From positions 1-64,000 of the IMG/VR virus record IMGVR_UViG_3300046710_000261: DNA of 64,000 nucleotides, one strand, 5' to 3'. The notes under the pieces are model-generated. The model was not told the DNA's origin. It was given only the letters and a program-made list of their open reading frames with translations, and made no database searches. Each line of letters starts with the position of its first letter. Within the stretch, counting starts at the first letter, position 1. This stretch comes from a virus (taxonomy: Duplodnaviria; Caudoviricetes). Made by a program: the position numbers and the translations under genes. Shown here piece after piece: positions 125-34,237 of the stretch.

Positions 125-343
125 ATGAAAATTTGCGGTGCATATGAAGGAAAAAAATGTAGTGGTTTTATTGACGGATATAAGCTTAAATGTAAATTTG
201 CCGAATACCATCAAACATGTAATCATTCAAACGACAGGCGTCGCTATGACCATGATAACGGAATTGCTTGGCATTGTACAAATGGACATTCAGTAACTTG
301 TATTGATGGATATAAAATCCCCGATGAGATTTTCAAGATATGA
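125..343 (+). CDS. Cys/His-rich microprotein with conserved C-terminal tag (type A)
   Basis: Multiple Cys/His; ends YKIPDEIFKI; ATGA overlap with next gene. Confidence 0.75.
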   Translation: MKICGAYEGKKCSGFIDGYKLKCKFAEYHQTCNHSNDRRRYDHDNGIAWHCTNGHSVTCIDGYKIPDEIFKI

Positions 344-537
344 AAGATTGTATATATATCACTCATAAAAATAAAAAGAAATCTGCTCTTTGGTATTGTC
401 AATATGGAACAAACCGCAGTTTTGATTTTCCAGGAGAAAAATTCTGTGATGATTGGTGTAGATGTTCAGATTATAAACCCGTAAGCGAAGAAGACAATTT
501 CAAATTAGAAATACCAATGAAGGAATTTAAAATATGA
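340..537 (+). CDS. Cys-rich microprotein with C-terminal tag (type B, MKDCI...WYC)
   Basis: MKDCIYI..WYC..GEKFCD.W; ends FKLEIPMKEFKI; paralog of 34025..34237. Confidence 0.8.
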   Translation: MKDCIYITHKNKKKSALWYCQYGTNRSFDFPGEKFCDDWCRCSDYKPVSEEDNFKLEIPMKEFKI

Positions 538-785
538 AAGGCTATCGCATTTTTGAAGAAAAAGATTTGGTTGTTGACGACGGGAAAACTGAAAGACAAA
601 AATGGTTGGACAGTCTCAAACCAGAAATGATTGTTTGGTACTATGATTTTGCCAGCTATCCGTCTAAAGTAAAATTAATCAGTAAATTTGGTCTTGTATC
701 ATGGGAAGTACAATGGGCAGAATCATGGGGAGGATTTGTCGCCTTTAAAGATAACTTATTCAAATGGAAAAAAGATATTCCTTAA
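534..785 (+). CDS. hypothetical protein (N-terminal IFEEKDL motif)
   Basis: ORF coupled by ATGA overlap. Confidence 0.6.
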   Translation: MKGYRIFEEKDLVVDDGKTERQKWLDSLKPEMIVWYYDFASYPSKVKLISKFGLVSWEVQWAESWGGFVAFKDNLFKWKKDIP

Positions 786-799
786 GATAGGAGACTATA

Positions 800-970
800 A
801 TGAAAAAAATATCCATTGTTGAAGAAAAAGATTTGAAAGTTATCTGTAAAACAAAACGGTGCCATAAGGAAATCAATCCCGAAGAATACCCCGGAGTATA
901 TAATAGTGAACCATTTATTTATGACAAAAATTGCGGGTGTTGTGTGGATTGCCCGTTTATAAGAGAATAA
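800..970 (+). CDS. 56-aa Cys-rich microprotein (not in ORF track)
   Basis: AGGAG SD; translated by hand: MKKISIVEEKDLKVICKTKRCH...NCGCCVDCPFIRE. Confidence 0.65.
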   Translation: MKKISIVEEKDLKVICKTKRCHKEINPEEYPGVYNSEPFIYDKNCGCCVDCPFIRE

Positions 971-973
971 TAT

Positions 974-1180
974 ATGAAAGAAAAATTATTCATTTGTGAT
1001 GGGGTGGGAATACATTGTGGTCATTCTTGCACTGCCCAAGAACCACATAAACATGGTACGAGAGATAATTATACATTATGTAATGAACAAAGAGATTGTA
1101 GAAGAGCAGGAAAACTTACAACATGCGTACCATATCATGAATATAAAATCGAATTACCAAAGGAGTTATTTAAAATATGA
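974..1180 (+). CDS. Cys/His-rich microprotein with C-terminal tag (type A)
   Basis: LFICDG..PHKH..CNEQRDC; ends YKIELPKELFKI; paralog of 31247, 30224, 29761. Confidence 0.8.
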   Translation: MKEKLFICDGVGIHCGHSCTAQEPHKHGTRDNYTLCNEQRDCRRAGKLTTCVPYHEYKIELPKELFKI

Positions 1181-1436
1181 AACTCACAACTTTATTTATT
1201 ATCTGGATCGTCGTGCTTTTTATAATTCTGCCAATGCCATTTTCATCAATTAGAAGATGGTATGATAGAAAATATGGCAAAAAGATTGCAACTTGCAAAA
1301 TTTGTAGAAAAGATATGAGCGAAAGTTATACTATATGGCTTAAACTTCATCTTGAAAATATGCACGAACTTGGGCTGAAAGAGATGTTGAAATTTGCTTG
1401 GTGGCCTTGGGCATACTTTTCTTTCAGGAGGGAAAA

Positions 1437-2246
1437 ATGAACATTATAAAACAGTCGTGGGAATTTATGGATGAATATGATGGTGAGAGGATGCTCAAGA
1501 AGATTGAGCGTATGGGCAGAACCGCATATAAATCCGAAAGCAGAATTGCCCCAAAGTCTTTTGAGAAATTCATTATGACACTGGTAAAAAGTGGGCATAC
1601 TTCTGTTTTGGAACATGGGGTTATTTCTATCAAGATTATCACAAGCAGGGCAATCGCAAATCAAATCGTAAGGCATAGGCTTGCTTCTTATACACAGGAA
1701 AGCACCCGATACTGTAATTATTCGAATAAAAAATTCGGGAAGCAGATCACAGTTATTCTGCCAAAATGGTATTATTCTCTTGATCTTGATAAGACCATCA
1801 AAGAACTTGATAGTCTGAAATCCTTGAATATTTCCGATCCTCTTGTAAATCAATTCAGTAGATGGTTATGGGTAATGAGGCAATGTGAATATACTTATTT
1901 TGATCTGATCAAATTGGGTCAAAAGCCAGGTCGAGCACGAGGGGTATTGCCTCTCGATTTGAAAACTGAATTGGCTATGACTGCGAATATAACTGAATGG
2001 AGACATATATTGAGGGCAAGAATAAAAGAAGATGCTGACCCTCAAATACAAGAAATTTGTTTGTCCATTTTAGAAGGATTTGAAAAAACATTTCCCATCA
2101 TATTTAATGATGTTTTGATGGAAAAGGTTGTGTTGGATACAATGTCAAAATGTAAGGCATTGGTGCTTGTAAAAAAAGGAAACGAGAATGGTAGCAACGA
2201 AATCAAGGAAGTGGATAGAACTCAATTGGTTGAGACGAAAGAATAA
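1437..2246 (+). CDS. thyX: flavin-dependent thymidylate synthase
   Basis: GHTSVLEH, SRAIANQIVRHRLASYTQESTRY signature, ARGVLP, WRH; start moved to the ATGA overlap at 1437. Confidence 0.95.
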   Translation: MNIIKQSWEFMDEYDGERMLKKIERMGRTAYKSESRIAPKSFEKFIMTLVKSGHTSVLEHGVISIKIITSRAIANQIVRHRLASYTQESTRYCNYSNKKFGKQITVILPKWYYSLDLDKTIKELDSLKSLNISDPLVNQFSRWLWVMRQCEYTYFDLIKLGQKPGRARGVLPLDLKTELAMTANITEWRHILRARIKEDADPQIQEICLSILEGFEKTFPIIFNDVLMEKVVLDTMSKCKALVLVKKGNENGSNEIKEVDRTQLVETKE

Positions 2247-2622
2247 AGAAATATTTTTGCCAGAAATATTATTTGTTCCTTTGGAAAAAGCATCGGGCTG
2301 TTATATCCACCCATTGAAAATAGAATATCCTATTTGTGGAAGATATATTAATTTGGAAAGAGGAATTATTATTGTCAATCCTGAATGGGATGATAAAGAG
2401 ACTATAAATTCTATTGCTCATGAATGGAGACACCATCAACAATATCTCAATGGAATAACTTTCGAAAACCACACAGGATGGAAGACCACAGAAGATTATA
2501 AAAAGAATATTATAACTTATTTCCATTCAAATAAAGTAGAAATGGATGCTCTTTTGTTTTCACAGAAGATAGCATCATCAGATACTTCAACTGAATGGTT
2601 AGAATGGGTAATGAACGGATAA
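2188..2622 (+). CDS. HExxH zincin-like metalloprotein
   Basis: SIAHEWRHHQQY plus downstream E (VEMDA). Confidence 0.55.
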   Translation: MVATKSRKWIELNWLRRKNKEIFLPEILFVPLEKASGCYIHPLKIEYPICGRYINLERGIIIVNPEWDDKETINSIAHEWRHHQQYLNGITFENHTGWKTTEDYKKNIITYFHSNKVEMDALLFSQKIASSDTSTEWLEWVMNG

Positions 2623-2625
2623 ATC

Positions 2626-3681
2626 ATGACATACAATACTTTTCTATTTCTACTTTTATTTTCTGTTATACCATTTCTGCTTTATAGGCTTTTCAAAAAG
2701 CAGATGGTCTGGTTTGAGCCTTGTATTCTTATTCCACTATGCTTTCTTCTGGTATTCATAGGACAATGGGGGAGCATTACCATAGCAACCCAGGACACAG
2801 AAACCTGGAATGCTCAACTTGTCAATAAAAAAAGTGTGAGAGTTTCTTGTGAGCATTCATACCAATGTAATTGTTATACGGATAAAAACGGAACGCATTG
2901 CTCAACCTGTTATGAACATTTTTATGATGTTGATTGGAATTTATATGATGATATGGGAAACACAATTACCATTGACAGAATAAATAGACAAGGAACAAAA
3001 GAACCGCCGCGCTGGACAAGAGCAAAGCAGGGAGACCCCATTGCTACTCTTCATAATTATACAAATTGGGTAAAGGGGGTAAAGTATTCTGTCTTCAGTG
3101 AAGAACGTGGTGATACATCAAAATATGATGCCGTTGTTCCCAAATATCCCCAAAGGATTTATGACTACCATTATTGTGATAGGGTTCTTCGAGTAGGTAA
3201 AGTAAACATCGAAAATTTTCCAGCATGGAGTATGGATTTAGCATATGCCCTAAGAACAATGGGGCCGAAAAAACAAGCAAATGTAGTTTTGATTTTTACT
3301 GATCTGCCAAAGGATTTTTATTATTCAGTCGTAAAGGCATGGAACCATGGTAAAAAGAACGATGTTGTTATCATCGTGGGCCTGGATACATCAAATGAAA
3401 TAGATTGGGTTCAAGTTTTCTCATGGTCAAAGAAAGATATATTCAATGTCAAATTGCGTGATGCCCTATATGATTTACATACACCAAACAGAGCACAATT
3501 TATTCAAACAATTTCAGAAATAACAATGTCTGATTTTCAAAGACAATCAATGAAAGAATTTGAATATTTGAGAAAGGAAATTCATCTTTCAACTCCGATC
3601 TGCATTTTCTTTTATATATTGCTCATCGGCGCGTGTGTTGGTGATGTGTTGTTGGTAGAAAAATACAATGATAGGTATTGA
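2626..3681 (+). CDS. membrane protein with large periplasmic domain (TPM-like), LemA-associated
   Basis: Two N-terminal and one C-terminal TM segments; Cys-rich insert; GKKNDVVIIVG resembles the TPM strand; near LemA-like gene. Confidence 0.55.
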   Translation: MTYNTFLFLLLFSVIPFLLYRLFKKQMVWFEPCILIPLCFLLVFIGQWGSITIATQDTETWNAQLVNKKSVRVSCEHSYQCNCYTDKNGTHCSTCYEHFYDVDWNLYDDMGNTITIDRINRQGTKEPPRWTRAKQGDPIATLHNYTNWVKGVKYSVFSEERGDTSKYDAVVPKYPQRIYDYHYCDRVLRVGKVNIENFPAWSMDLAYALRTMGPKKQANVVLIFTDLPKDFYYSVVKAWNHGKKNDVVIIVGLDTSNEIDWVQVFSWSKKDIFNVKLRDALYDLHTPNRAQFIQTISEITMSDFQRQSMKEFEYLRKEIHLSTPICIFFYILLIGACVGDVLLVEKYNDRY

Positions 3682-3945
3682 AAAAGAGAGAGGAAAGAAA
3701 ATGAAGGTAGTAACTTTTGAGGAAAAGCTAGGAAGAGTTGAAGTGCTTCAAGAAACAGAAGTAGTTGGTGTTTTTACTGACGATGGAAGTCTAATGATAC
3801 TTACATCAACCACATTCACCTGTTTGGATCTATTGTTAATGAGCAGAGAGGGAGATAGACTTCTCAAATCCAAGATAGTATCTTTAGAAGCTGAATTGAA
3901 AAAACTTCGGGAAAACAATTAAATTCTATTTAAAGGGGAAAGAAA

Positions 3946-4164
3946 ATGTTGAGAAAAATTGAAAGTTTTTATTTGAAGTTCTGTATTGGTCTTGCTATAT
4001 TCATCGTCATTGGGGCCATTTCTTCTTGTGGTCAAGCCTCAAGAATGGAAGCATCATATACAGGATATTCAAGAATGTGTGTGGATGGAGTTCAGTATCT
4101 TCAATTCACTTCGGGCGCAACTGTTGCATATGAAACAGATGGAAGAATCAAAACTTGTAAATAA
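3946..4164 (+). CDS. small lipoprotein
   Basis: Hydrophobic leader with lipobox ISSC; CVDGVQY...C motif. Confidence 0.6.
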   Translation: MLRKIESFYLKFCIGLAIFIVIGAISSCGQASRMEASYTGYSRMCVDGVQYLQFTSGATVAYETDGRIKTCK

Positions 4165-4185
4165 AAAAAAGAGAGGAGAAAGAAA

Positions 4186-5284: not shown

Positions 5285-5551
5285 ATGAAAATTGTAAAAT
5301 TCAAAGATGGAAAGTATGGAATAAGACGGGGATGGCATTGGTGGATAGGATATGAATACAAAGATTTGACTTCTGGTTACTGGTGGCATGCTGGTGGTAG
5401 TGAAGTTCAAAAATCTTGTAAATCTCCGGATCTTGATCTTGTTCAGAAAATATTAACGGAAATGACCGATATGGGAACACCAATAGATAAACCAGAGAAG
5501 CCCAAAGAATTATGGAATACAGCAATTTCAGAAGATGTTTTCAAAATATAG
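5285..5551 (+). CDS. hypothetical protein with C-terminal tag (non-Cys body)
   Basis: Ends TAISEDVFKI-TAG. Confidence 0.65.
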   Translation: MKIVKFKDGKYGIRRGWHWWIGYEYKDLTSGYWWHAGGSEVQKSCKSPDLDLVQKILTEMTDMGTPIDKPEKPKELWNTAISEDVFKI

Positions 5552-17991: not shown

Positions 17992-18183
17992 TTATTCCTC
18001 CATTGTAAATACATCTTTGGATATTTCAAATTTATGTTCGGGTTTACATTCATAATGTACGCATGGACGATTATCCACAAACATCCCTTCAAAACAATAA
18101 TGTTCCTGGGGGTGGGCTTTAATACAATACCATAATTGAGTAGCAAAAGTATTTTTTCTTTCTATATGAATACAATCTTTCAT
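17992..18183 (-). CDS. Cys-rich microprotein with C-terminal tag (type B)
   Basis: MKDCIHI..WYC..YCFEG; ends FEISKDVFTMEE. Confidence 0.7.
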   Translation of the reverse strand: MKDCIHIERKNTFATQLWYCIKAHPQEHYCFEGMFVDNRPCVHYECKPEHKFEISKDVFTMEE

Positions 18184-19566: not shown

Positions 19567-21831
19567 TCATTCTCCACCTATTTTATGATTTATCTCATAA
19601 CCAGAATTTTTGAGCAATACTTCTTTCTCCGCTTCGATCAAATCATAGTCGTACATCATTCGTATCAATCCAGCAAAATCCAGTTTCGGTTTCCATCCCA
19701 ATACATTCTTTGCTTTTGATGGGTCGCCTAATAGATTATCAACCTCACTTGGCCTGAATAGTTTTGGGTCAATCCGCACATATTTCTGCCAATCCAATCC
19801 AGCATATCCATATGCCAATTCAACCAATTCCTGTATTGTGTGAAATTCACCTGATGCGATAACAAAATCATCGGGTGTATCATGCTGAAGCATAAGCCAC
19901 ATTGCCTCCACATAATCACCCGCATATCCAAAATCACGACGCGATTTCAAATTGCCCAGATATACATCATCCTGCAATCCCATTTTTATTCGGGCAGCAC
20001 TCGAAGTGACTTTCTTGGTAACAAAATTCAATCCACGGCGTGGACTGCTATTATGGACAATACCCAAACCAACACCACACATAAATTTACCACTATTGGT
20101 TTCTATATCATAAAACCATCCATCATGCTTTACCATATCAATTACTTTTTTGACTTCACTTCTATCCTGTTGAAAATGATGTCTGCCCTTGGGTATATAT
20201 CCATTTTTGACTTTACGGATAAATGTTCGCGTGATCCCTGTTTTTCGTGCCGTCTCTCTTTGACTGCACTGTTGATCAAGCATCAATTTCACTTTCGTAT
20301 ATCTTTCAGTTGCTGTTCGGGCATTCTGCCCTGTATTGCTATTGGATAGAAAATTGACAGAGTAATAGTAACTTATACCTGCACCTATATCTATATTTAT
20401 ATTATACTCCTGTTTCATCAGATTGTAAATCAAACACACCAATCCTGCAATCAAAACAGCACTACCTGACTTTACATTCTTAAATTCATATGACAGGCTA
20501 TGTCCTTTTTGTAGTCCTGCTGATTCATAATATCCATGAATAAATGCCAATTTTATTTTGCTGTTACTGTTCAAAATCTTCCATGGTATGCGTTTATATC
20601 CTTCTGTGGTATAGAAATCTTTACGCTGAAACTTTTTCCAGAAATCATCCATAGGGCTGATAGTCAAATACTTTTTCGTCTTCTCTTTTATATGTTTTTC
20701 CTTCACTTCACCCATCTGAAAATAATTGTTATATATGGTAGGGATAATTTGCCTATACTTTTCCAGCATGCGCATATCACTGTTACATAATGTAATAGTT
20801 TCATTCTCATTTATAGAGCCACAAGCAACAATAAATCCACATAACATGGCTTCATTCTCACTTACCCCTAATTCCTTCTCATATAAGACAGGATATTTAC
20901 CCAATAGTAATTTATCACCAACACCCGCGCCCATATCAATATTCATATCTTTACAGCGATTATTTAAATTAGTACGATGCCATATAATTTCCCCAGCCTT
21001 CTTCTCTCTATTATCATCCATATAGCATATATGATCATCACTCACAGAATAGACACTACCACGAGCATTTACAATCTTTACTTTCTTATCCATGTCATAA
21101 TGCATGGAAATCCCTTTTATACGTGACCAGTCATTTCCATCCCATACGGATACATTTCTATCTACAGTGTGATGTTGTGGATTATTATTATTTTGCCTAC
21201 AAGGTGAAATTAATTCCACTATATCTCGTATAGGAAGTATATCTATTATTTCAAGATTATTAATATGAAAAAATAAGGGCATTGAGGGATGAAGGCTATG
21301 GTTGAAAAGTATTCCTGAACTGGCAAATAGGTTAAATGCACGGCGATAATTTCGTGTTGTGTTATATGCAAATAATTTAGCGCATGCGTAGGGGGAGTTA
21401 GGTTCAAAGGGAGTATGCTCTGATTGAGGGGGGGAAATGGTGCCATACATTTCGCTTGATGATGCTTGATAAAAACGAGGGGCAAATTTAACCTTTCTTA
21501 TTGCTTCGAGTATGCGCAATGCGCCTATTCCTGTTATGTCACTTGTGTATTCAGGTGAATCAAATGAAATGCGCACATGAGATTGAGCTGCAAGATTATA
21601 TATTTCATCTGGATGAATGTCACTTATTAATTGTAACAGTCTAGCACTCTCACTCATATCACCAAAATGCAATATTAATTTTTCATTCTGATTTATATTA
21701 TACAGCCTCTCTAAATTAAATGTCGATGCGCGTCTTATCAGCCCATGCACTTCATATCCTTTAGACAATAATAATTCAGCAAGATAAGAACCATCTTGTC
21801 CTGTAATTCCTGTGATAAATACCTTTTTCAT
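19567..21831 (-). CDS. gmd: GDP-mannose 4,6-dehydratase interrupted by an intein
   Basis: ITGITGQDGSYLAE, LAAQSHV, QASSSE, SPYACAK, GILFNH|...|SPRRG.NFVT, RPSEVD.LLGD. Confidence 0.95.
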   Translation of the reverse strand: MKKVFITGITGQDGSYLAELLLSKGYEVHGLIRRASTFNLERLYNINQNEKLILHFGDMSESARLLQLISDIHPDEIYNLAAQSHVRISFDSPEYTSDITGIGALRILEAIRKVKFAPRFYQASSSEMYGTISPPQSEHTPFEPNSPYACAKLFAYNTTRNYRRAFNLFASSGILFNHSLHPSMPLFFHINNLEIIDILPIRDIVELISPCRQNNNNPQHHTVDRNVSVWDGNDWSRIKGISMHYDMDKKVKIVNARGSVYSVSDDHICYMDDNREKKAGEIIWHRTNLNNRCKDMNIDMGAGVGDKLLLGKYPVLYEKELGVSENEAMLCGFIVACGSINENETITLCNSDMRMLEKYRQIIPTIYNNYFQMGEVKEKHIKEKTKKYLTISPMDDFWKKFQRKDFYTTEGYKRIPWKILNSNSKIKLAFIHGYYESAGLQKGHSLSYEFKNVKSGSAVLIAGLVCLIYNLMKQEYNINIDIGAGISYYYSVNFLSNSNTGQNARTATERYTKVKLMLDQQCSQRETARKTGITRTFIRKVKNGYIPKGRHHFQQDRSEVKKVIDMVKHDGWFYDIETNSGKFMCGVGLGIVHNSSPRRGLNFVTKKVTSSAARIKMGLQDDVYLGNLKSRRDFGYAGDYVEAMWLMLQHDTPDDFVIASGEFHTIQELVELAYGYAGLDWQKYVRIDPKLFRPSEVDNLLGDPSKAKNVLGWKPKLDFAGLIRMMYDYDLIEAEKEVLLKNSGYEINHKIGGE
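20050..21297 (-). mobile_element. intein (416 aa) with degenerate LAGLIDADG endonuclease
   Basis: Starts SLHPSMPL, ends FYDIET...IVHN followed by Ser; LCGFIVACG and FIHGYYESAG blocks. Confidence 0.9.
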
Positions 21832-23350: not shown

Positions 23351-23542
23351 CTATAATTTAAACTCATTCATATCAATGCTGAAATTCATATACTCTGCAC
23401 ATACTATGTCCATATGTTTAACAGGACATGCGAATGGATAATCCCCCATTCTATTATCAGGGTGTCTATGTGGCTTTGCGCATATGCATGCATCCCTATA
23501 TCCACATTCAATATAATCACCACAGATAAATAATTTATTCAT
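23351..23542 (-). CDS. Cys/His microprotein with tag (type A)
   Basis: LFIC..PHRH; ends FSIDMNEFKL. Confidence 0.7.
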   Translation of the reverse strand: MNKLFICGDYIECGYRDACICAKPHRHPDNRMGDYPFACPVKHMDIVCAEYMNFSIDMNEFKL

Positions 23543-24473: not shown

Positions 24474-24677
24474 CTATATCTGGAAAATTTTTTTAGGAAA
24501 TTTTATTTTAAATTCGCTGTATTCTATACATTCTATTTTTTTGCCCAATGTCAAACAAGCGACAAAGGAATTGCCAGTCGCCAAACAACTGCTCGATTTA
24601 CGGTGTGGCTCTACATGGCTACATTCAAGCCGTCTTATTCCCTTACATTCCTTTCTACATGGACAGATATATTTCAT
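24474..24677 (-). CDS. Cys/His microprotein with tag (type A)
   Basis: YIC..CSHVEPH; ends FKIKFPKKIFQI. Confidence 0.75.
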   Translation of the reverse strand: MKYICPCRKECKGIRRLECSHVEPHRKSSSCLATGNSFVACLTLGKKIECIEYSEFKIKFPKKIFQI

Positions 24678-24874
24678 ATCGTAAATACCGTTTCATCAAT
24701 TTTATAATCTATCTGCTCTACACAAGTTGGATGCGATTTATTATCGTCATTGAATATTCCGTATACATAACATTCAGAATTGCATCCCATGGCCTTTTTA
24801 TGAGGAGTTTGATGGCCACATTTAAATTCTTTTATTAAGCGACAGTCCTTTGCTTTACTGCATATATAGTTCAT
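24674..24874 (-). CDS. Cys/His microprotein with tag (type A)
   Basis: YIC..CGHQTPH; ends YKIDETVFTI. Confidence 0.75.
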   Translation of the reverse strand: MNYICSKAKDCRLIKEFKCGHQTPHKKAMGCNSECYVYGIFNDDNKSHPTCVEQIDYKIDETVFTI

Positions 24875-25077
24875 ATTTTAAATACTCTTTCAGGTATCTC
24901 TATCTTGAAAGGTTTGTTATCAATACATCTTACAATTCTTCTGATGGTTCTACAATAAGCATCACAACTTCCAGAGATTAATTCATGTTCTTTATAGTGG
25001 CGGCAAGTCACGGGGCCAAAAGAAGTCTTGTATCTCCCACCACATTTTTTCCCCGCAGGGCAGATATATTTTATCAT
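24871..25077 (-). CDS. Cys/His microprotein with tag (type A)
   Basis: YIC..CRHYKEH; ends FKIEIPERVFKI. Confidence 0.75.
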   Translation of the reverse strand: MIKYICPAGKKCGGRYKTSFGPVTCRHYKEHELISGSCDAYCRTIRRIVRCIDNKPFKIEIPERVFKI

Positions 25078-25123: not shown

Positions 25124-25333
25124 TCATATTTTAAACTCCTCCTCTGGTATTGCGAGATTTAATTCGGGTTCTTTTATGATAACACATCCAGTCCATGTTC
25201 CCATTTCATTACATGTCGCGCTAACAAAATTTCCAGTCGTGCCATAATGTATATGAGGGACCGCTCCATCACAATTTTGTTTTCTACATCTACCACTTTT
25301 GAATGCTTCGCATATATACCTTTTCTTTTTCAT
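25124..25333 (-). CDS. Cys/His microprotein with tag (type A)
   Basis: YIC..PHIH; ends LAIPEEEFKI. Confidence 0.75.
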   Translation of the reverse strand: MKKKRYICEAFKSGRCRKQNCDGAVPHIHYGTTGNFVSATCNEMGTWTGCVIIKEPELNLAIPEEEFKI

Positions 25334-25515
25334 ATTTCGAAAACCTCTTTAGGTATTTCAAATTTTTCTTTATGCTCAACACAGAAGGCATAGTGAGCAG
25401 GGATAGCATGATCACAATATCCTTCGGCGCATAAAATTTCCTTTTCATGCGGAACAGAATGAATGCATTTCTTTTTAAAGGAGCAACCAAAATTTCTACA
25501 CATGTATGCTTTCAT
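25330..25515 (-). CDS. Cys/His microprotein with tag (type A)
   Basis: YMC..CIHSVPH; ends FEIPKEVFEI. Confidence 0.75.
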   Translation of the reverse strand: MKAYMCRNFGCSFKKKCIHSVPHEKEILCAEGYCDHAIPAHYAFCVEHKEKFEIPKEVFEI

Positions 25516-25709
25516 ATTTGAAATTCTTCTTTCGGTATTTCGAGGTTGAATGGTACATAATCTTTACATGTAGTCTTCATCATAAATTTTCTGCAAGTGC
25601 AATGACAACCAGGAACAAAATCATGAGGAAGAAAATGAGGACATTTTCTTAAGTCTTCTACAAACATGCCATTGCAATATTTGGCTTGCGCACAAATCAT
25701 TTCTCTCAT
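25512..25709 (-). CDS. Cys/His microprotein with tag (type A)
   Basis: MIC..CPHFLPH; ends LEIPKEEFQI. Confidence 0.75.
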   Translation of the reverse strand: MREMICAQAKYCNGMFVEDLRKCPHFLPHDFVPGCHCTCRKFMMKTTCKDYVPFNLEIPKEEFQI

Positions 25710-25876
25710 ATTTCAAACTCCTCTTTTGGTATATTCAAATTAAGCATTATCTGGCATCTGATTATGGTTCCGTCACAGGTATGATCTGAACAGTATTTGT
25801 TATGCTCATGGAGTTTGGAATGAAAACAAGAACCATAATATCTACATTCTATTTTGAGGCATAGATATTTGTCCAT
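25706..25876 (-). CDS. 56-aa Cys/His microprotein with tag (type A; not in ORF track)
   Basis: MDKYLCLKIECRYYGSCFHSKLHEH...LNIPKEEFEI, translated by hand. Confidence 0.75.
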   Translation of the reverse strand: MDKYLCLKIECRYYGSCFHSKLHEHNKYCSDHTCDGTIIRCQIMLNLNIPKEEFEI

Positions 25877-26065
25877 TACATTTCTTCCTCCAATGCTTTC
25901 TCCATCGTTTTAAAGGCCAACCGCTTTCTCCATTATTATATCCACACTGGCATTCGGCTATATATCTATGGCAATCAAGACAGTATTCTTCATGGCCCGA
26001 ACAGTATGGGGTTTCACAGGGAAATGAATAATAATAATCTGGATTTATATGTTTATGTTTACATT

Positions 26066-26323
26066 TCATATCTTAAATTCTTCCTTCGGTATCTTGAAAT
26101 TGAATTCTACATATTCAATACATCTGACAATATCATCTCTTGATTTCGGACATTTTCTTTCTCCTATTACACACAAATGCATCATGAAGCCTGGGAGAAC
26201 ATCGTGACTATGAGGCAAAGAAAGTTTGCATATTGAATTTCCATCAAAAGTTCCAAAAGTTCTTTTTCCATCCGTTTTGCAGGTTTTGAGTTGATATGAA
26301 GAGCATATATACATTTTTTCCAT
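26066..26323 (-). CDS. Cys/His microprotein with tag (type A)
   Basis: YIC..PHSH; ends FKIPKEEFKI. Confidence 0.75.
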   Translation of the reverse strand: MEKMYICSSYQLKTCKTDGKRTFGTFDGNSICKLSLPHSHDVLPGFMMHLCVIGERKCPKSRDDIVRCIEYVEFNFKIPKEEFKI

Positions 26324-26607
26324 TATTCTATCCTGAATACATCTTCTGGAATTTTGTTTATATCAACTATTTCTATACAGGTCAACTTCTCTTCTAACTT
26401 AAAGCATTTCAATGTTACGGGCTTTTTTCCATAACAAAAAGTGCAATTATTCGCTAGTATATGAGGCGTACCATTGGAACACGGCGACCCGCGAAATAAA
26501 CCATCACACTTTTTTTCCAACACCGCCTGACATATTCTCTTTGGTGGCTCAACAATAGTGGCCCTCATTATTTCTTTTTTCGGTTTATCTTGGCCAAATT
26601 TTTGCAT
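26323..26607 (-). CDS. Cys/His microprotein with tag (type A)
   Basis: RIC..CDG..PH; ends KIPEDVFRIE. Confidence 0.7.
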   Translation of the reverse strand: MQKFGQDKPKKEIMRATIVEPPKRICQAVLEKKCDGLFRGSPCSNGTPHILANNCTFCYGKKPVTLKCFKLEEKLTCIEIVDINKIPEDVFRIE

Positions 26608-26615: not shown

Positions 26616-26843
26616 CTATTCTATTTTAAATAATTCTTCTGGCAGTTTGATTTCAAGCGGGTCATATACCATATATATAACACCATTTATTTCATATGAT
26701 TTCCATTTCATAGAAATATCTCCCATCGGCGGAATTTCACATTCTTCTTTCGTTATTAGTTTTGGAAACGGAAAGTCTTTTCTCAAATTTTCAAAAACAT
26801 ATTCAAAAGAATGCTTATCCATCTTCAATATTCCTTTTGTCAT
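26616..26843 (-). CDS. tagged microprotein, non-Cys body
   Basis: Ends EIKLPEELFKIE. Confidence 0.7.
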   Translation of the reverse strand: MTKGILKMDKHSFEYVFENLRKDFPFPKLITKEECEIPPMGDISMKWKSYEINGVIYMVYDPLEIKLPEELFKIE

Positions 26844-27070
26844 AATGCAAACACATCCTTTGGTATATCCAATTTGAAATCAATATATTCCACACAATAT
26901 ACAAAATCACCATCTGTATTGCATTTAAGATGTTCCCTGCAAATAGGACAATAGGGCCAGAGTTCCATTCTATCGGTTGGTAGATGGGGTCTGCTATATG
27001 CGCATTCTTTCCCAAAAGATATTCCATTACATTTGTTATCTCTAAATTTGACGCAGATTTGAAATATCAT
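26840..27070 (-). CDS. Cys/His microprotein with tag (type A)
   Basis: QIC..CNG..RPH; ends LDIPKDVFAL. Confidence 0.7.
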   Translation of the reverse strand: MIFQICVKFRDNKCNGISFGKECAYSRPHLPTDRMELWPYCPICREHLKCNTDGDFVYCVEYIDFKLDIPKDVFAL

Positions 27071-28265
27071 CAGCCTTCTCCATTGTTGAACTTCTCCAAT
27101 TCTTATCCATTACTTCTTCTTCGAGACGCAGATCAAAATACTTTTTTGCTATATCAGGAAATCGTTTTTCTATATCGTCAAGATTTCGCCAGCGGTTTTT
27201 ATTGGTGTCTTTCATTGAAGGTCTTTCGCAAAATTGCCTGAAGGATTTTTTGGCAAAGTTCAAAACTGAATTTATCCATTCATCCATATGAGAATATAGT
27301 TTCCGATATGGTCCCGTCTTTGCATTCTTATATCTCATCAGGAAAGGAAGACATCCGTATTTCATTATGATATGTACTCTCTCAAAAGTATTCTCTATAT
27401 CCTTTTTCCAAAATGCTTCATCATACTTTCCTTCTTCATCAAATCCACAAAGGACAAATAGTTTTGTTTCATGGCGAGGACTGACATACTTTCTCCATAA
27501 TAGCAATTTCTTCTCTATGATTTCTCTTTCCCTTATATCATCAAATGCAAAAATGTAATGGCCCTCATACTTACAACTTGTTATGACCTTTGCTTTCTCG
27601 TCTGTCAGCATTCGAATATCCATTCCCTGTTTGAATTGGAATGATCTGCCCGTTGCAATCAATTCATCGAATACATCTTTCCAGTGAGCATAGCCAAGAA
27701 TGTTATCATCCCAAAGAGAAATTGCCCTCCGCGCAGGAACGAAAAATTCTTTTACATGGGTATGAAATTCAACCTTTCTATACTTTTGGTTTACACAGAA
27801 CGGACATTTACGGAAACATCCCCGCGTCATAAATCCTATTGAGTAGTCAGTATAATAATCCCAACTCCCTCTTCCGACTCTCTTTTCTCCCAGTTTTTTT
27901 CCTATAGGGTTTTTTTGGTTGCCCAGCCAATCATTATATAGATTATAGTCTGGCATATGATGTTCAATTTCATCAGGCAGATTTGGGGCCTTATCAAAGA
28001 AGAAACCCGTTCCGCCATATTCAACATTTGGCCTTTCTATTGGACTTGGTATAAGTACATTGCTTTGGGGGATAACTGTTTCGGTGAATACTTTTGATAT
28101 ATATACCTTATCGTATTTGTCAATTTGAGAATAATTCAAAAGCAGACTGACCCTATCTCCCTGTTCTTTATGGTGGCCTGATAGTTTCATACAAGCAAGG
28201 TTAGGAAAACTGTGACTTATTTTGTTATCCAATAAATCAGCATCTATAATACCTACGTTTTTCAT
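27042..28265 (-). CDS. radical SAM protein (copy 1)
   Basis: TRGCFRKCPFC (CxxxCxxC), WDDNI, QGMDIR; N-terminal FPNLACMKLSG domain. Confidence 0.85.
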   Translation of the reverse strand: MKNVGIIDADLLDNKISHSFPNLACMKLSGHHKEQGDRVSLLLNYSQIDKYDKVYISKVFTETVIPQSNVLIPSPIERPNVEYGGTGFFFDKAPNLPDEIEHHMPDYNLYNDWLGNQKNPIGKKLGEKRVGRGSWDYYTDYSIGFMTRGCFRKCPFCVNQKYRKVEFHTHVKEFFVPARRAISLWDDNILGYAHWKDVFDELIATGRSFQFKQGMDIRMLTDEKAKVITSCKYEGHYIFAFDDIREREIIEKKLLLWRKYVSPRHETKLFVLCGFDEEGKYDEAFWKKDIENTFERVHIIMKYGCLPFLMRYKNAKTGPYRKLYSHMDEWINSVLNFAKKSFRQFCERPSMKDTNKNRWRNLDDIEKRFPDIAKKYFDLRLEEEVMDKNWRSSTMEKADDISNLRQI

Positions 28266-28492
28266 ATTTTGAATACCTCATCTGGTATTTTGAATTTGTT
28301 AATTTCTGGAATAAGAATTATAAATTCATTTATACAAGAACAATGAAATCCCATTTTTGTTTTCTGTTCTCCATGGAGAAGTCTATTCAAAACCTCAAGC
28401 GACTGGTTTCGTCTATATATACAAATATCGTTATGACATATTTCTTTATGATCACAATAATGCATATTTTTATTTTTTATTATAAACATCAT
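28262..28492 (-). CDS. Cys/His microprotein with tag
   Basis: Ends FKIPDEVFKI. Confidence 0.7.
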   Translation of the reverse strand: MMFIIKNKNMHYCDHKEICHNDICIYRRNQSLEVLNRLLHGEQKTKMGFHCSCINEFIILIPEINKFKIPDEVFKI

Positions 28493-28719
28493 AATTCAAA
28501 TACATCCTTTGGTATATTAAATTCCTTATATTCTTGGCATTGTGGTTTTCTACAATTTTCGCGACACTCTGTTATTTCTCCTGGAAAAGCACAAAAATAG
28601 TTTGAGCCACAATCACCAGTATGTTGATGTGGAATGCTGTGTTTACATGGTGTGGTATTACAAATTCCAGGTATTGTCCCATTACATCCATATTTACATA
28701 TGTATAATTGTTCTTTCAT
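28489..28719 (-). CDS. Cys/His microprotein with tag (type A)
   Basis: YIC..CKHSIPHQH; ends FNIPKDVFEL. Confidence 0.75.
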   Translation of the reverse strand: MKEQLYICKYGCNGTIPGICNTTPCKHSIPHQHTGDCGSNYFCAFPGEITECRENCRKPQCQEYKEFNIPKDVFEL

Positions 28720-28949
28720 ATCTCAAACTCTTTCTTTGGTATTTTTAAGTCTATCTCAAATTTTTTAAATTCAACACAATAAACATCAGCATACATTATC
28801 TGACAATGTGTTTTCTGTCCAGAGTGTGGATGATCATGAGCAGAAGCCAATGGACATTTACGAGGATGATCGTAGTTGTATGATTTGCTATCAAATGCTT
28901 TTTCTCCATCACACTCATTATTTTGAAACATATTACATATGCATTTCAT
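28716..28949 (-). CDS. Cys/His microprotein with tag (type A)
   Basis: CIC..CDG..AHDH; ends LKIPKKEFEI. Confidence 0.75.
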   Translation of the reverse strand: MKCICNMFQNNECDGEKAFDSKSYNYDHPRKCPLASAHDHPHSGQKTHCQIMYADVYCVEFKKFEIDLKIPKKEFEI

Positions 28950-28950: not shown

Positions 28951-29127
28951 TTATTCTACCTTGAATAATTCTTCTGGAATTTCCACCCTTCTCTTATATT
29001 CGGGGCATTTTATATGATGGTATCCATTTCGCAGAAGACCTTCTATACAATATTGTTTTGAGTTCGCGCAATACCATATTTTTTCGCTGACCGAATTTTT
29101 TCTTGCCAAATACCTACAATCTTCCAT
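28951..29127 (-). CDS. 58-aa Cys-rich microprotein with tag (type B; not in ORF track)
   Basis: MEDCRYLARKN..IWYC..YCIEG..CPEYKRRVEIPEELFKVE. Confidence 0.75.
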   Translation of the reverse strand: MEDCRYLARKNSVSEKIWYCANSKQYCIEGLLRNGYHHIKCPEYKRRVEIPEELFKVE

Positions 29128-29128
29128 C

Positions 29129-29764
29129 TTATTCCTCCTCGATTTTTGGTAAAGAAAATGTTTGTAGATTGCTCAAACGAAAACCCTTTTTGCTTACCGT
29201 GTATAATTTGAATTGGGTATCCATATGAGAAGAAATCAATTTATAGAATAGGGTGTATAGATTTTTTTCGAAGGGGATCTTTTTTTGGAAATCAGTTGAT
29301 TGCTTTTGCAAATATTCCCCTTCCCAAAAATCAAGACCAATTATATCTATTTCCATCGCCCTGTCCATGTATAATGCTCTCATTATACCATAGAAGGTAA
29401 TATTATTCATTGTGCTGTAAAGCATTTGAAGTTCGGGAGGAACAAAATGATAATGCAGACCTTCGATATTGTATGATTGTAATTTTTCTATTGATTTGGT
29501 TATTTCATTCTTTCTCACTTTCGGAACAGTGAAACAGACTTCCTTTATTCCGTATTTCAAATATACTTCTTTGGGTAGAATAGACGGCAACATTCTATTT
29601 GCTATATGACTAATTTTTAGGCTTTCGAATATATCAGGGTATAAATTCATTGCGTGGACTACATTAGCATTGACAATGTAAGCATGGCAATCTTTTATTT
29701 CATCTTTTATTGAGCATATATGTCGAATGCTCTCACCGCTTGCTATCACAATTGCTTTTTTCAT
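29129..29764 (-). CDS. GT42/Maf-like (sialyltransferase-fold) protein
   Basis: AIVIASGESI ... EIDIIGLDF motifs. Confidence 0.55.
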   Translation of the reverse strand: MKKAIVIASGESIRHICSIKDEIKDCHAYIVNANVVHAMNLYPDIFESLKISHIANRMLPSILPKEVYLKYGIKEVCFTVPKVRKNEITKSIEKLQSYNIEGLHYHFVPPELQMLYSTMNNITFYGIMRALYMDRAMEIDIIGLDFWEGEYLQKQSTDFQKKIPFEKNLYTLFYKLISSHMDTQFKLYTVSKKGFRLSNLQTFSLPKIEEE

Positions 29765-29988
29765 AGTTTGAATAAATCCTTTGATAATTCGATTTCAAAT
29801 TTTATATATGGTATACATTCTGAATTTACATTTATCCTGGGACACGGAAATCTTCGTTCATTACAGCGGTCCTTCACTGTTCCATGTTTGTGAGGTTCTG
29901 CTCCAGGACAATCAGGAAAATTATGTATTCCATTTCGTGTGCATAGAATATTGTCTTTTTTGTCGCATATGTATAATTTTTCTTTCAT
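29761..29988 (-). CDS. Cys/His microprotein with tag (type A)
   Basis: EPHKHG..CNERR; ends IELSKDLFKL. Confidence 0.75.
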   Translation of the reverse strand: MKEKLYICDKKDNILCTRNGIHNFPDCPGAEPHKHGTVKDRCNERRFPCPRINVNSECIPYIKFEIELSKDLFKL

Positions 29989-30227
29989 ATCTTGAATAAA
30001 TCCTTTGGTAGTTCAAAAGCCAGTTTTGTTTTATAATCTGCGCACATTCTGTTTTCACATGCACCACAACTTAAATCTCCCGACCAACAATAAGTTTCTT
30101 TCCGTTGAGACATGCTTGTTTGTCCTTTTTTTAGAGAACAATACCAGACATGGGAATGACCATCAGAAGTTTTCCCCCCATTGCTTGTCATATACATACA
30201 TTCAACTGTGTTATATTCTTTTTTCAT
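29985..30227 (-). CDS. Cys-rich microprotein with tag (type B)
   Basis: ECMY..WYC; ends FELPKDLFKI. Confidence 0.75.
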   Translation of the reverse strand: MKKEYNTVECMYMTSNGGKTSDGHSHVWYCSLKKGQTSMSQRKETYCWSGDLSCGACENRMCADYKTKLAFELPKDLFKI

Positions 30228-30463
30228 ATCTTGAATAAATCCCTATCCAATTCAATCTTGAATGAATAATACGGTTGGCAAACTGTAAATTTTTTTGCAT
30301 GAGAGCAATCTCTTTCTTCATTGCAATGATGAGGCTCAAGAGGACGACCGCATTTATGTCTATGAGGAACTCGACCACGACAGTCTATATTTTTACAGAT
30401 ATTTGCCCCATCACACAAAAACAATTGGTCGTTTTTCATATTTAGAGATTGATCGTTTTTCAT
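30224..30463 (-). CDS. Cys/His microprotein with tag (type A), duplicated N-terminus
   Basis: MKNDQ twice; CNEERDC; ends IELDRDLFKI. Confidence 0.75.
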   Translation of the reverse strand: MKNDQSLNMKNDQLFLCDGANICKNIDCRGRVPHRHKCGRPLEPHHCNEERDCSHAKKFTVCQPYYSFKIELDRDLFKI

Positions 30464-30669
30464 ATTTCAAATACCTCATCTGGTATTTTGAATTTATGTT
30501 CTTCTTGCTTTTCACCATCTTCAAAATTTTTGCATATATCCGCTTTCAATAGAGCATTTATGCAGGGATTATTATCTTTCATACATTTATGCCATGATAC
30601 CCCTCCCGCCCTGTCTATAAAAAGGTAATATCTGCATTCTCTATATCTTGTGTTTTTACATATAGTCAT
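30460..30669 (-). CDS. Cys-rich microprotein with tag
   Basis: Ends FKIPDEVFEI. Confidence 0.7.
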   Translation of the reverse strand: MTICKNTRYRECRYYLFIDRAGGVSWHKCMKDNNPCINALLKADICKNFEDGEKQEEHKFKIPDEVFEI

Positions 30670-30917
30670 ATTTCGAGTAAATCCCCTGGTATTGTTTTCG
30701 CCTCTTCCCTTGTTATTACCTTGATTTTTATGTTTGCCTTATCATCGGCAAGCAATACACCTATATTTGTAAAACCACAATCCTTTACTACCTTTTTTAT
30801 TGTTTCCATTGCTTTGCTTCTGTTTGATAATGATGAAAAATTCCCCATTATGAAAAGAATATCATTCTCTTTCAAAGATAATTTTTCTATAGTCAATGCT
30901 ATTTTTTCTTTGTCCAT
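30666..30917 (-). CDS. tagged protein, non-Cys body
   Basis: Ends TIPGDLLEI. Confidence 0.6.
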   Translation of the reverse strand: MDKEKIALTIEKLSLKENDILFIMGNFSSLSNRSKAMETIKKVVKDCGFTNIGVLLADDKANIKIKVITREEAKTIPGDLLEI

Positions 30918-31246
30918 GCTTTTGTAATTCCCCTCCTTGACCTTTTCATCTTTTCGAGCAATGCTTTGTGTTTGTATTCATCAATCATGTTATCATTCAG
31001 TATGAATATATAGGTGAGATAATCATATGTTTTCTTTGGTAGGACACCTTTCAATGGATAGATCGCACCGACAAACGATGACCAATATGTTCCCGTTTTC
31101 AGATCATACAACACCCAATAATAATCATCATCGTCTTCTGCCCATCCATCCAATCTGACAACTTTGAAACAATCAAGTACGAGTTGTCCTTTCATCTTTT
31201 TTACTTCTGCTATCAACAATTTTTTGTTTTCGTCCATCAATAACTC

Positions 31247-31474
31247 CTATAGTTCGAATAAATTTTTTGGAAATTCAATTTTCAATTGAAAGTAAGGAAT
31301 GCATTTTGTAAATTTTCCTGCTTTTCTACAATGTCTTTGTTCATTACATCCAGCATCAATATGATTGTGGGGATAATACCCTTTACAATATTCTGGGGGG
31401 TGATGGCCTTCATACCAGCAATGTTCTCCTACCCCATCACAAACAAATAATTCTTCTTCTTTTTTTATTTCCAT
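31247..31474 (-). CDS. Cys/His microprotein with tag (type A)
   Basis: Start moved to MEIKKEEELFVCDGVG by homology to 974..1180; ends IEFPKNLFEL. Confidence 0.75.
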   Translation of the reverse strand: MEIKKEEELFVCDGVGEHCWYEGHHPPEYCKGYYPHNHIDAGCNEQRHCRKAGKFTKCIPYFQLKIEFPKNLFEL

Positions 31475-31791
31475 GCTCTTTCTCCAAAATGATGTCTGGA
31501 GAAGAAACAAATACAATAACCACCCTTTTCTGGTCCTCTTTTCAGAGTACATCCATCCATATATTTTGTATTCCAATAGATACAGTTTGCACAGGGATAG
31601 GGGTTTTCTTCCCGCGTTTCTATCACTTTCAGGTCGCTTATTTTTATTATAGGCACACTATGTTCTTTCTTATAATAACAGCAAAAATTGAATGACCCAT
31701 TGAAACGATATGGACAATTCGATTTGGTATGCAAACAGCGTGGTGTGGCTGGAAAAGAATTATCATAATGTCGGCAATTTTCTATACTCAT
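31465..31791 (-). CDS. Cys-rich protein
   Basis: Two Cys clusters separated by IIKISDLKV. Confidence 0.6.
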   Translation of the reverse strand: MSIENCRHYDNSFPATPRCLHTKSNCPYRFNGSFNFCCYYKKEHSVPIIKISDLKVIETREENPYPCANCIYWNTKYMDGCTLKRGPEKGGYCICFFSRHHFGERAWK

Positions 31792-31994
31792 TCTGCCTCT
31801 TTCAAATCCGCTTCTTCTATTGTAGGAACTGGTTTATAAAAATAACAAAACCGAAAACATTCACTATAAGAAAATGAACAAATTTCGGGCAAAGAAGTTC
31901 TTCTGCATCGTTGATGATCATCCCCACCACGAAAATCACAAAAAAAACACAAATCTTTGTCTCTGCTTTTGTCTCCGCCATAATAGATGAGCAT
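31788..31994 (-). CDS. Cys-rich microprotein
   Basis: First gene after promoter; ends PTIEEADLKEAE. Confidence 0.6.
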   Translation of the reverse strand: MLIYYGGDKSRDKDLCFFCDFRGGDDHQRCRRTSLPEICSFSYSECFRFCYFYKPVPTIEEADLKEAE

Positions 31995-32015
31995 ATAGTT
32001 ATCCCCTATATTATT

Positions 32016-32044
32016 ATTATACCATAATCATAATTGATTGTAAA
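32016..32044 (-). promoter_or_regulatory. sigma70-type promoter driving the microprotein array
   Basis: TTTACA-17-TATAAT with TG extension. Confidence 0.75.
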
Positions 32045-32305
32045 TGTAGGTGGGAAAACAAAAAGGATAATGAAAAGGGGCCACTGGCTACTCTTTTTAT
32101 AAAGAATTGTATTTATCGAGGGGTATGGAGTATTTTTCTATAACTCCATCAGATTTATATGGGATAATCCTGCTTATCAATTTATCTATATGAGACATAG
32201 ATAATTTTTGATAAACATACCATAAAGAAACAATCAGAATGGATATTGTTATTTGGCCGAGAATTATTTTGTAGAAAGTTTCTTGTACTTGTTTCATATT
32301 ATTTA

Positions 32306-32380
32306 TGGAGCATCCAACGGGAATTGAACCCATATCTTATCCTTACCAAAGATAAATTCTGCCGATTGAACTATGGATGC
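32306..32380 (-). tRNA. tRNA-Thr(GGT)
   Basis: Acceptor GCATCCA/TGGATGC, anticodon arm TATCT-TTGGTAA-GGATA, T-arm ATGGG-TTCAATT-CCCGT, encoded CCA. Confidence 0.9.
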
Positions 32381-32830
32381 TTATCTTATTCTTCTTTTGT
32401 TGGCCCTGGATTTCTTTTTTCTACCAAATGAGATATATCTCTCCATATCTCATTGCCCAAAAAACAAAATGCCCAGGGCAAACACCAAATCGGTAAAGTG
32501 ATCATTAAGAAAAGTTTCTTATATAATAACTTCCGCATTCTCTTTCTTACATATTTATTGAATATCTCTTTTTTATATTCATCTGATGTTGGTATACCCA
32601 AAATAGCTGTCATACATTTTCCTTTCTTTGTTGCAACGTTTTGTCTTTGGTTGTTCTGTATATTACCTTCAACACATCGTCTGAATTTTCCCAAGTAAGA
32701 TAATTATAATGACAGGCAGGGCAATCAACGGGTCCTGGCATTTCTTTTTCGAATTCAAATTTACATTTTTGACATTGGTATTTTGATTTTGGTATTTTTT
32801 TTATCAATTTGTATATTCCTATTTATGACC

Positions 32831-33127
32831 TTATTCTATTTTCCATATGCTTTCGGGCAACTTCAGCCCCGTTATACCCTTCAATAAATCTTCAATGGAA
32901 GTTTTTGTTTTGATTATTTCTTCATATTTTTCATCGTTAAGACATAATCGAAATTCCGTGTCTGTAATATTATTGAGGTCTTCTACCAGTATAGGATCAT
33001 TATATCTGTTGCTATTTTTCTGCAATCCTACAAGTGCTATTTTACCAGGATTGACTTGCGAAAGAATATGCCAACCATATCCTTTTATATCAAAACAATC
33101 TCCGCGCTTAATATTTTCCATATTCAT
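32831..33127 (-). CDS. tagged protein, non-Cys body
   Basis: Ends LKLPESIWKIE. Confidence 0.6.
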   Translation of the reverse strand: MNMENIKRGDCFDIKGYGWHILSQVNPGKIALVGLQKNSNRYNDPILVEDLNNITDTEFRLCLNDEKYEEIIKTKTSIEDLLKGITGLKLPESIWKIE

Positions 33128-33132
33128 TACTC

Positions 33133-33846
33133 CTATATCTTCACAAAATACCTTTCCATGGAATTAATATCGGCGAGGCCATACCAATTTGTATTAGAGT
33201 AGTGGCCTTGATAATACTTATGGAAGTGACCAAAAAACCACAGGTCGGGTCTGTATTTCTTCAAGACTTCAGATAACATATATCTACTTGGGTCTGGTAA
33301 ATGATTATCTCTTGTTACTGTGCTAAATTCCATAGGTGCCGTATGAGTTATCATAATATCAATTTTTACATCGGGTAAATTTTCTATGTCTTCATTGGTT
33401 ATTATTTCTTCGGGAAACCAACTTACCCCCTCAATTCTGTATTGCTTATCAATAGATTTTGCTCCACCGATGAACATTACATTTCTACCATCAGGCAAAG
33501 TTAAAACCGATCCTCTCTTCATCCAATAAATATTTTGCATATGCTCTTTGATACCTGCCTCAAAAAGTGTCGGTAAATCTTCGTGGTTGCCCTCACACCA
33601 ATAGATTTTTATGTTCTGGTTGTTTATACCATACTGATCCCATAATCTTTTCCCTCCGCTGGCCCCTGTTCTTATCTGACCTTGAAGTTTAGGCCAGAAA
33701 CCAAAATCGCCCACTTGGAGAACAATATCATATTCGTCTTTCTCATAAAAGACTTCATGCTCTTCTCTATAAGTATGAAGTTTACGGAGAAAGTAATTTA
33801 ATACTGAAAAGTATCCGTGCACATCGCCGAGTATATAGATAGTCAT
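33133..33846 (-). CDS. calcineurin-like metallophosphoesterase
   Basis: GDVHG, GDFG, GNHE, ITHTAP, GHFH. Confidence 0.9.
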   Translation of the reverse strand: MTIYILGDVHGYFSVLNYFLRKLHTYREEHEVFYEKDEYDIVLQVGDFGFWPKLQGQIRTGASGGKRLWDQYGINNQNIKIYWCEGNHEDLPTLFEAGIKEHMQNIYWMKRGSVLTLPDGRNVMFIGGAKSIDKQYRIEGVSWFPEEIITNEDIENLPDVKIDIMITHTAPMEFSTVTRDNHLPDPSRYMLSEVLKKYRPDLWFFGHFHKYYQGHYSNTNWYGLADINSMERYFVKI

Positions 33847-34028
33847 TCTATTCTAAGTATCTCCTTTGGTAAAAAAATAAATTCATTTGTATAAAAAGGA
33901 CACGATCTTCCTTCAAAACAATAACGTTCTCCAGGAAAATCAGAACTGATATTTCCTTGATCATTCTTACAATACCAAACCCTGTTATCCCTTGTGCCTT
34001 TAAATTTTATATAGATACAATCATTCAT
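33843..34028 (-). CDS. Cys-rich microprotein with tag (type B)
   Basis: MNDCIYI..WYC..FPGERYCFEG; ends IFLPKEILRIE. Confidence 0.75.
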   Translation of the reverse strand: MNDCIYIKFKGTRDNRVWYCKNDQGNISSDFPGERYCFEGRSCPFYTNEFIFLPKEILRIE

Positions 34029-34237
34029 TCTATTATAAGCATTTCCTTTGGAATTATAGTTTCTGATTCTGATTTATAAAACGGGCATCTTCTTGAGTCT
34101 CTATCCCAACTATCACAAAACTTTTCTCCCTTCTTTTCGCGGCTGCTCTGAACCCCTCCTATTTTACAATACCAAATATTTGGTTCTATAACGTTCTTAA
34201 ATTTTATATGAATACAATCTTTCATTTCTTTCTCCAT
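34025..34237 (-). CDS. Cys-rich microprotein with tag (type B)
   Basis: MKDCIHI..WYC..GEKFCDSW; ends IIPKEMLIIE. Confidence 0.75.
   Translation of the reverse strand: MEKEMKDCIHIKFKNVIEPNIWYCKIGGVQSSREKKGEKFCDSWDRDSRRCPFYKSESETIIPKEMLIIE

Follow-up and report, generated by a model that had tools for sequence, protein, structure and literature searches.

We analyzed a stretch of viral DNA (IMG/VR record IMGVR_UViG_3300046710_000261, positions 1 to 64,000; hereafter the window) that makes up the initial 64 kb of one virus contig of 155,948 bp, and found that many of its small proteins end in a common C-terminal octapeptide, Φ-P-x-[D/E]-Φ-F-x-Φ, after which 1-3 further residues, mostly acidic, may follow. 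This element, hereafter the tag, is a modular appendage on unrelated protein bodies. Selection acts on the peptide at the amino-acid level, and the tag is dual-coded: its final ATA codon and its AAG and GAG choices supply the start and the Shine-Dalgarno (SD) sequence of the next gene. The motif marks one deep-branching clade of T4-like phages, known mainly from environmental metagenomes. We give an even chance to the reading that the tag is a short linear docking motif, appended to unrelated small proteins that thereby bind one common partner.

Results

The tag is selected as a peptide and carries a nucleotide layer

A regular expression for the C-terminal motif returned 34 open reading frames (ORFs) over the whole contig, 31 of them convincing, compared with 0-2 matches in 20 shuffles of the genome. 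A preliminary description of this DNA had listed 30 such ORFs in the window; all 30 were recovered with the motif, and four more carriers lie on the contig beyond the window. Some of the carriers have weak tags. The tag proline is replaced by serine in the ORFs beginning at 5285, 17992 and 29761 and by aspartate in those at 23351, 24674 and 30224, and the phenylalanine by leucine at 30666, 33843 and 34025 and by tryptophan at 32831. No match for the tag system was found in Pfam, PHROG or solved structures.

The preliminary description had argued that selection acts on the peptide, pointing to a proline that uses all four codons and to tags kept without an overlapping downstream start, and our counts bear this out. 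The proline codons were CCA (20), CCT (3), CCC (2) and CCG (2), and both phenylalanine codons were used. Information at codon positions 1/2/3 was 1.06/1.48/0.57 for the proline, 1.57/1.81/0.87 for the phenylalanine and 1.21/1.49/0.28 for the acidic residue, and was thus concentrated in the first two positions and low in the third. In 79 environmental carriers (see below), the leucine before the phenylalanine was written with five codons from both leucine families and never as TTY, though the search pattern permitted it. The peptide was retained in all 11 of the 34 carriers that are uncoupled from a downstream start; most of these lack GG-containing tag codons, and in one case a tRNA gene comes next. 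The intergenic initiation regions of the phage show GGAG plus 4-9 nt, without any Pro/Phe pattern, and coupled genes that bear no tag are present in the same array.

The earlier view was right about the peptide but underrated coupling and SD codon bias. For 23 of the 34 tagged genes, the stop and the following start codon overlap or adjoin, most often in the form ATATGA. The final tag codon is ATA in 26 of 34 cases, whereas ATA makes up 43% of isoleucine codons genome-wide; the Lys/Glu codons after the proline often give AAGGAG-like words, with AAG and GAG enriched over their genomic shares (28% and 17%) and CCA enriched as well. SD-like words occurred in 15 of 23 coupled tags and 3 of 11 uncoupled ones, a difference that is only suggestive (p=0.066). 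Among environmental tags selected by ATGA, GAG and AAG dominate.

The tag sits on unrelated bodies

After removal of the tag, all-against-all BLASTP sorted the 34 carriers into 18 type A bodies, 6 type B bodies and 10 singletons, which together make at least 10 unrelated body classes. Type A is a Cys/His knot with the consensus C-x6-C-x4-C-x-H-x2-P-H ... C ... C ... C; alignment confirmed the patterns previously proposed for both types. Neither type had a significant profile match in Pfam or PHROG, and 20 further tagged proteins gave nothing informative there. A fold search with the type A model returned nothing significant, and the matches from a word-based homologue search were limited to self and near-self.

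Eight of the 10 singletons have few or no cysteines, and two of these contain known domains. One is a NADAR protein (contig 118444-118899, + strand, L003:14444-14899; Pfam E=2e-21), and the other, of 154 amino acids (aa), has two repeats like the C-terminal domain of L7/L12 (contig 137462-137926, + strand, L004:13462-13926; Pfam E=1.7e-9), is devoid of the L10-binding N-terminal domain and has a tRNA-like sequence immediately after its gene. The other carriers outside the window lie at contig 76404-76706 (- strand) and 139045-139305 (+ strand). The NADAR domain stops short of the tag, which occupies an extension of ~11 residues, and an orthologue in a related contig, G002, ends ~10 residues earlier and is untagged. 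A charged stretch, probably flexible, usually precedes the tag.

AlphaFold placed the tag as a coil followed by a four-residue terminal helix both in a type A protein (predicted local distance difference test, pLDDT, 80) and in an unrelated beta-rich carrier (pLDDT 64). The preliminary description had considered that the tag might prove to be a strand built into a single fold common to the carriers; the predicted terminal helix on two unrelated folds argues against this.

The same description had called the bodies hypervariable. They are indeed diverse, but the diversity reflects old paralogue divergence: the sister-strain ratio of nonsynonymous to synonymous polymorphism (pN/pS) was ~0.18 for the bodies, on few events. 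The proposed comparison of tag with body gave 0.16 for the tags, and with only 5 tag events this test is underpowered.

The tag marks a T4-like clade

A type A profile search of 1.8 billion proteins returned 47 cluster representatives, nearly all tag-ended. The tagged array is not peculiar to this genome. In two-domain type A fusions the tag stands only at the extreme C-terminus and at no internal junction; two homologues were untagged. Relatives were found through the contigs of type A homologues and a scan with a degenerate DNA pattern. They comprise contigs L006 and L008, three IMG/VR contigs of 162, 64 and 41 kb (G001, G002 and G003; the present contig is G000), and 69 metagenome and 10 genome-bin loci. 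Approximately 14 human-gut matches (one in Faecalimonas) were discarded as one chance match, read in a frame that overlaps a membrane-protein gene. This left 79 distinct tagged ORFs, 39-145 aa long and only 21 of them Cys-rich, often in arrays of 3-6 with very diverse bodies. Core proteins with 35-70% identity to those of this phage were present in 29 of the 79 loci, which is why we assign the motif to one deep clade. Type A had 0 matches in GenBank phages.

Five contigs filed under a 'Thermoplasmata archaeon' metagenome-assembled genome (L046, L049, L050, L052 and L054) contain the tag along with the polymerase and other core genes of the clade and are probably mis-binned phage contigs.

Genome content and expression context

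CheckV estimated the contig as 70% complete. It has a G+C content of 35% and uses the standard genetic code, and a search of it for stop-codon recoding found none. Its T4-type replication genes include a gp43-type DNA polymerase (contig 121413-124130, + strand), clamp-loader subunits like gp44 and gp62, after which comes a putative clamp of 251 aa with weak PCNA matches, and a gp32-type single-stranded DNA-binding protein (SSB). A DnaB-like helicase, a ribonucleotide reductase and a ThiF/E1-type ubiquitin-like operon are also encoded. Since the polymerase is only ~28-29% identical to cyanophage gp43, no cultured relative was available for comparison, and no closely related cultured phage was found. 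A late sigma factor, sought on this 70%-complete contig, was not found.

The main array is encoded on the minus strand, with strong TTGACA-N17-TATAAT promoters upstream of it at 40-59 kb and no TATAAATA inside it. Because of these two features, early expression of the array would fit. Near-consensus minus-strand copies of TTGACA-N17-(TG)-TATAAT were located at 40354-40383, 45000-45030, 45855-45885, 47774-47802, 55901-55929 and 58719-58747. The sigma-70-type pattern gave 12 matches against 6.2 expected, and a combined scan for consensus promoters and terminators was not above chance.

Tagged genes and neighbors in the window

Four tagged genes are on the plus strand. A Cys/His-rich singleton (125-343, 72 aa), whose stop overlaps the next ATG, is followed by a type B gene (340-537, 65 aa, coupled) and a type A gene (974-1180, 68 aa, coupled), the latter being the one modeled; an uncoupled non-Cys protein follows at 5285-5551 (88 aa). 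The remaining 26 are on the minus strand. At 17992-18183, a type B protein of 63 aa has a weak tag whose two-Glu tail forms the SD sequence of the next gene. Type A genes then predominate: 23351-23542 (63 aa, uncoupled), 24474-24677 (67 aa, uncoupled, its tag free of SD-like codons), 24674-24874 (66 aa, coupled), 24871-25077 (68 aa, coupled), 25124-25333 (69 aa, uncoupled), 25330-25515 (61 aa, coupled), 25512-25709 (65 aa, coupled), 25706-25876 (56 aa, coupled), 26066-26323 (85 aa, coupled) and 26323-26607 (94 aa, with an extra terminal Glu and TAATG coupling). An uncoupled non-Cys body (26616-26843, 75 aa) separates these from another coupled type A gene (26840-27070, 76 aa).

A type A-like gene at 28262-28492 (76 aa) is coupled to a radical SAM gene, and type A genes at 28489-28719 (76 aa) and 28716-28949 (77 aa), both coupled, precede in coordinate order a type B gene with an extra terminal Glu (28951-29127, 58 aa). 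Five coupled genes occupy the next block: type A at 29761-29988 (75 aa), a Cys-rich body that clusters with type B at 29985-30227 (80 aa), type A at 30224-30463 (79 aa), a Cys-rich singleton at 30460-30669 (69 aa) and a non-Cys body at 30666-30917 (83 aa). The set is completed by an uncoupled type A gene (31247-31552, 101 aa from the first ATG), an uncoupled non-Cys body (32831-33127, 98 aa) and two coupled type B genes, each with an extra Glu, at 33843-34028 (61 aa) and 34025-34237 (70 aa).

Several other genes of the window were noted. The array also contains an untagged Cys/His-rich ORF of 75 aa (25842-26069, - strand) and a protein of 211 aa (29129-29764, - strand) that belongs to no known family and has a degenerate tag-like end, L-P-K-I-E-E-E; in L068 and L074, homologues of the latter (~51% identical) are neighbors of type A genes. 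Two paralogous radical SAM genes (27042-28265 and 56614-57750, both - strand) are 58% identical and both belong to phrog_9298; the former is embedded in the tagged array and the latter adjoins the ribonucleotide reductase region. A 754-aa ORF at 19567-21831 (- strand) has the N- and C-terminal sequences of a GDP-mannose 4,6-dehydratase-type epimerase with a long insert between them and reads like an intein-interrupted gene. An N-terminal pattern, M-R-L-x-x-[YF]-[IL]-x-E, begins many products of the contig (104544-112378, 142419-145083 and others) and is present in the related contigs L036 and L072 as well.

Discussion

We propose a putative mechanism for the tag as a docking motif. The docking element would be an amphipathic helix of one turn, capped by the proline, at the linker end; its hydrophobic face (positions -5, -1, 0 and +2, counted from the phenylalanine) would contact the partner together with the acidic residue at -2. 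The carriers, probably early proteins, would all bind one common partner, which may be a conserved phage or host protein. Metal binding by the bodies, recruitment to a hub and an anti-defence or host-takeover role, all put forward in the preliminary description, are hypotheses. Our best guess, a weak one, is that the partner site also reads the SSB tip and would thus belong to a replication or recombination component. The C-terminal tip of the SSB has the skeleton Φ-x-x-E-L-x-x-Φ-COOH in common with the tag in three clade members; with a relaxed tag pattern, the SSB was among 4 matches in ~460 non-tag ORFs of G000 and the sole match in G002.

Several observations weigh against a docking motif. 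The likeness to the SSB was noticed post hoc and fails at the proline and the phenylalanine, the two best-conserved tag positions, and the search for a tag partner within this analysis named none. The tails of the clade polymerases (L-[S/D]-x-F-F type) and of gp55 (I-D-Y-x-Φ-L type) differ from the tag. Tag flavors follow paralogue subfamilies, so part of the likeness among type A and type B tags is due to common descent. Additionally, the nucleotide layer is real, as seen in the final ATA codons and the enrichment of AAG, GAG and CCA.

Comparable arrangements are known from T4, in which gp43, gp55 and gp33 bear interchangeable hydrophobic-acidic C-terminal clamp-binding tails on flexible linkers (PMC2988020) and the C-terminal region of gp32 is a recruitment hub, as for gp32-Dda (PMC11551737). 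Like the clamp-binding epitopes, the tag is a short hydrophobic-acidic C-terminal peptide after a variable linker on unrelated proteins (PMC2988020); however, its carriers number tens per genome rather than three and are mostly microproteins without an annotated function. A gp33 counterpart was also sought near the SSB, where a tagged gene precedes a conserved gene of 205-207 aa much as T4 gene 33 precedes gene 59, and this analogy was rejected: the 207-aa family matched gp59 with an hhalign probability of 0.06, and the small proteins are mutually non-homologous. The tails of SSBs (bacterial SSB-Ct, T4 gp32 and T7 gp2.5) are likewise acidic and hydrophobic terminal peptides, and they recruit partners, whereas the tag sits on many proteins that are not SSBs.

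Short address peptides on unrelated cargo are also represented by the T4 capsid-targeting sequence and by encapsulin cargo-loading peptides, and many proteins of the present genome bear N-terminal MRL..Y..E tags. The T4 sequence is N-terminal, ~10 aa long, cleaved at a protease site and late, in contrast to a tag that is C-terminal and stands in an early-looking promoter context, in an array without TATAAATA. In poxviruses, ankyrin/PRANC (F-box-like) proteins join many variable binder modules to a hub through a common C-terminal docking element. They have no sequence relation to the tag, and nothing ties the tag to the ubiquitin-like operon of the phage. We speculate, tentatively and with more doubt than confidence, that the clade holds a binder library in which one receptor reads the octapeptide and gathers at least 30 interchangeable small modules per genome at one cellular site. 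The modules would include Zn knots, beta-barrels, the NADAR enzyme and the L12-like protein, and the receptor might be a replisome component that reads the SSB tip or the phage ubiquitin-like conjugation machinery. Such a library would be a bacteriophage parallel to the F-box/PRANC adaptor families of viruses.

Other explanations fit the full data less well than a docking motif. The tag might be a mere by-product of junction signals, that is, of an SD sequence, an A/T-rich spacer and an overlapping ATGA in a fixed frame, and the junction might in addition be a recombination joint for cassette shuffling. The ATGA coupling with an SD sequence in the upstream gene at 23 of 34 tag junctions, the excess of ATA, the enrichment of AAG and GAG after the proline and their dominance in ATGA-selected environmental tags all speak for it, as does the tendency of SD-like words toward coupled tags (p=0.066). 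However, coupling alone leaves the conserved Pro, Phe and Leu and the uncoupled carriers unexplained; third codon positions are otherwise free, a ribosome-binding site needs no proline, phenylalanine or hydrophobic positions, and intergenic initiation regions show just their GGAG and spacer. The tag is also kept where a tRNA gene or a gap comes next, its distance to the stop changes with extra residues, and the array holds coupled untagged genes, so that we regard this explanation as unlikely. Descent from one ancestral microprotein, with the tag as a structural or oligomerization element, would account for the 24 of 34 carriers that fall into two Cys-rich families, for flavors that track subfamilies and for the tag pLDDT of ~80 in the type A model. 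It is an improbable account, given that the carriers include a NADAR enzyme, beta-barrel-like bodies and a repeat protein like L7/L12, and the NADAR orthologue and internal domain junctions are untagged.

The remaining alternatives give the peptide a different reader. A C-terminal degron or timer, by which early microproteins are cleared together once recognized by a protease or adaptor of host or phage, would suit a hydrophobic terminal peptide on many probably early proteins, in an array downstream of strong sigma-70-type promoters and without TATAAATA. We consider it to have a small chance of being correct, since the tag is, to our knowledge, unlike ClpX, Lon or Tsp signals, enzymes such as NADAR are tagged, and trailing residues are tolerated. 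A variant clamp-binding motif for a gp45-like sliding clamp of the phage is suggested by the interchangeable tails of T4 gp43, gp55 and gp33 (PMC2988020), by the gp44-like and gp62-like loaders with the adjacent 251-aa protein, and by the tag on a DNA-repair-type NADAR enzyme. The polymerase of this phage has its own beta-clamp-like tail, L-S-L-F-F, with I-D-S-I-F-G, L-S-A-F-F-G or L-D-A-F-F in relatives. The polymerase and gp55 tails follow another pattern that varies between clade genomes, whereas the tag is constant; compared with the bacterial motif QL[SD]LF, the tag has Pro and Lys/Glu at the first two positions and only its [D/E]-Φ-F part fits, and Glu often precedes Phe in the tags of this genome. 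A clamp motif is therefore rather improbable in our view. It is very improbable that the Cys-rich microproteins are precursors of ribosomally synthesized and post-translationally modified peptides with the tag as follower peptide for the embedded radical SAM enzyme. That idea draws on the radical SAM gene at 27042-28265 and on another that adjoins a type A trio in L006, but the two are not orthologous, most tagged arrays have no radical SAM gene, and non-Cys bodies and folded enzymes are tagged too.

Small early phage genes are mostly unannotated and have been studied singly. If at least a tenth of the genes of a large phage have a common handle, one pull-down could locate the whole protein class, and the tag would offer a simple sequence rule for finding such proteins in metagenomes. 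It is also a clear natural case of dual coding, in which a protein motif and a translation-initiation region are written on the same nucleotides.

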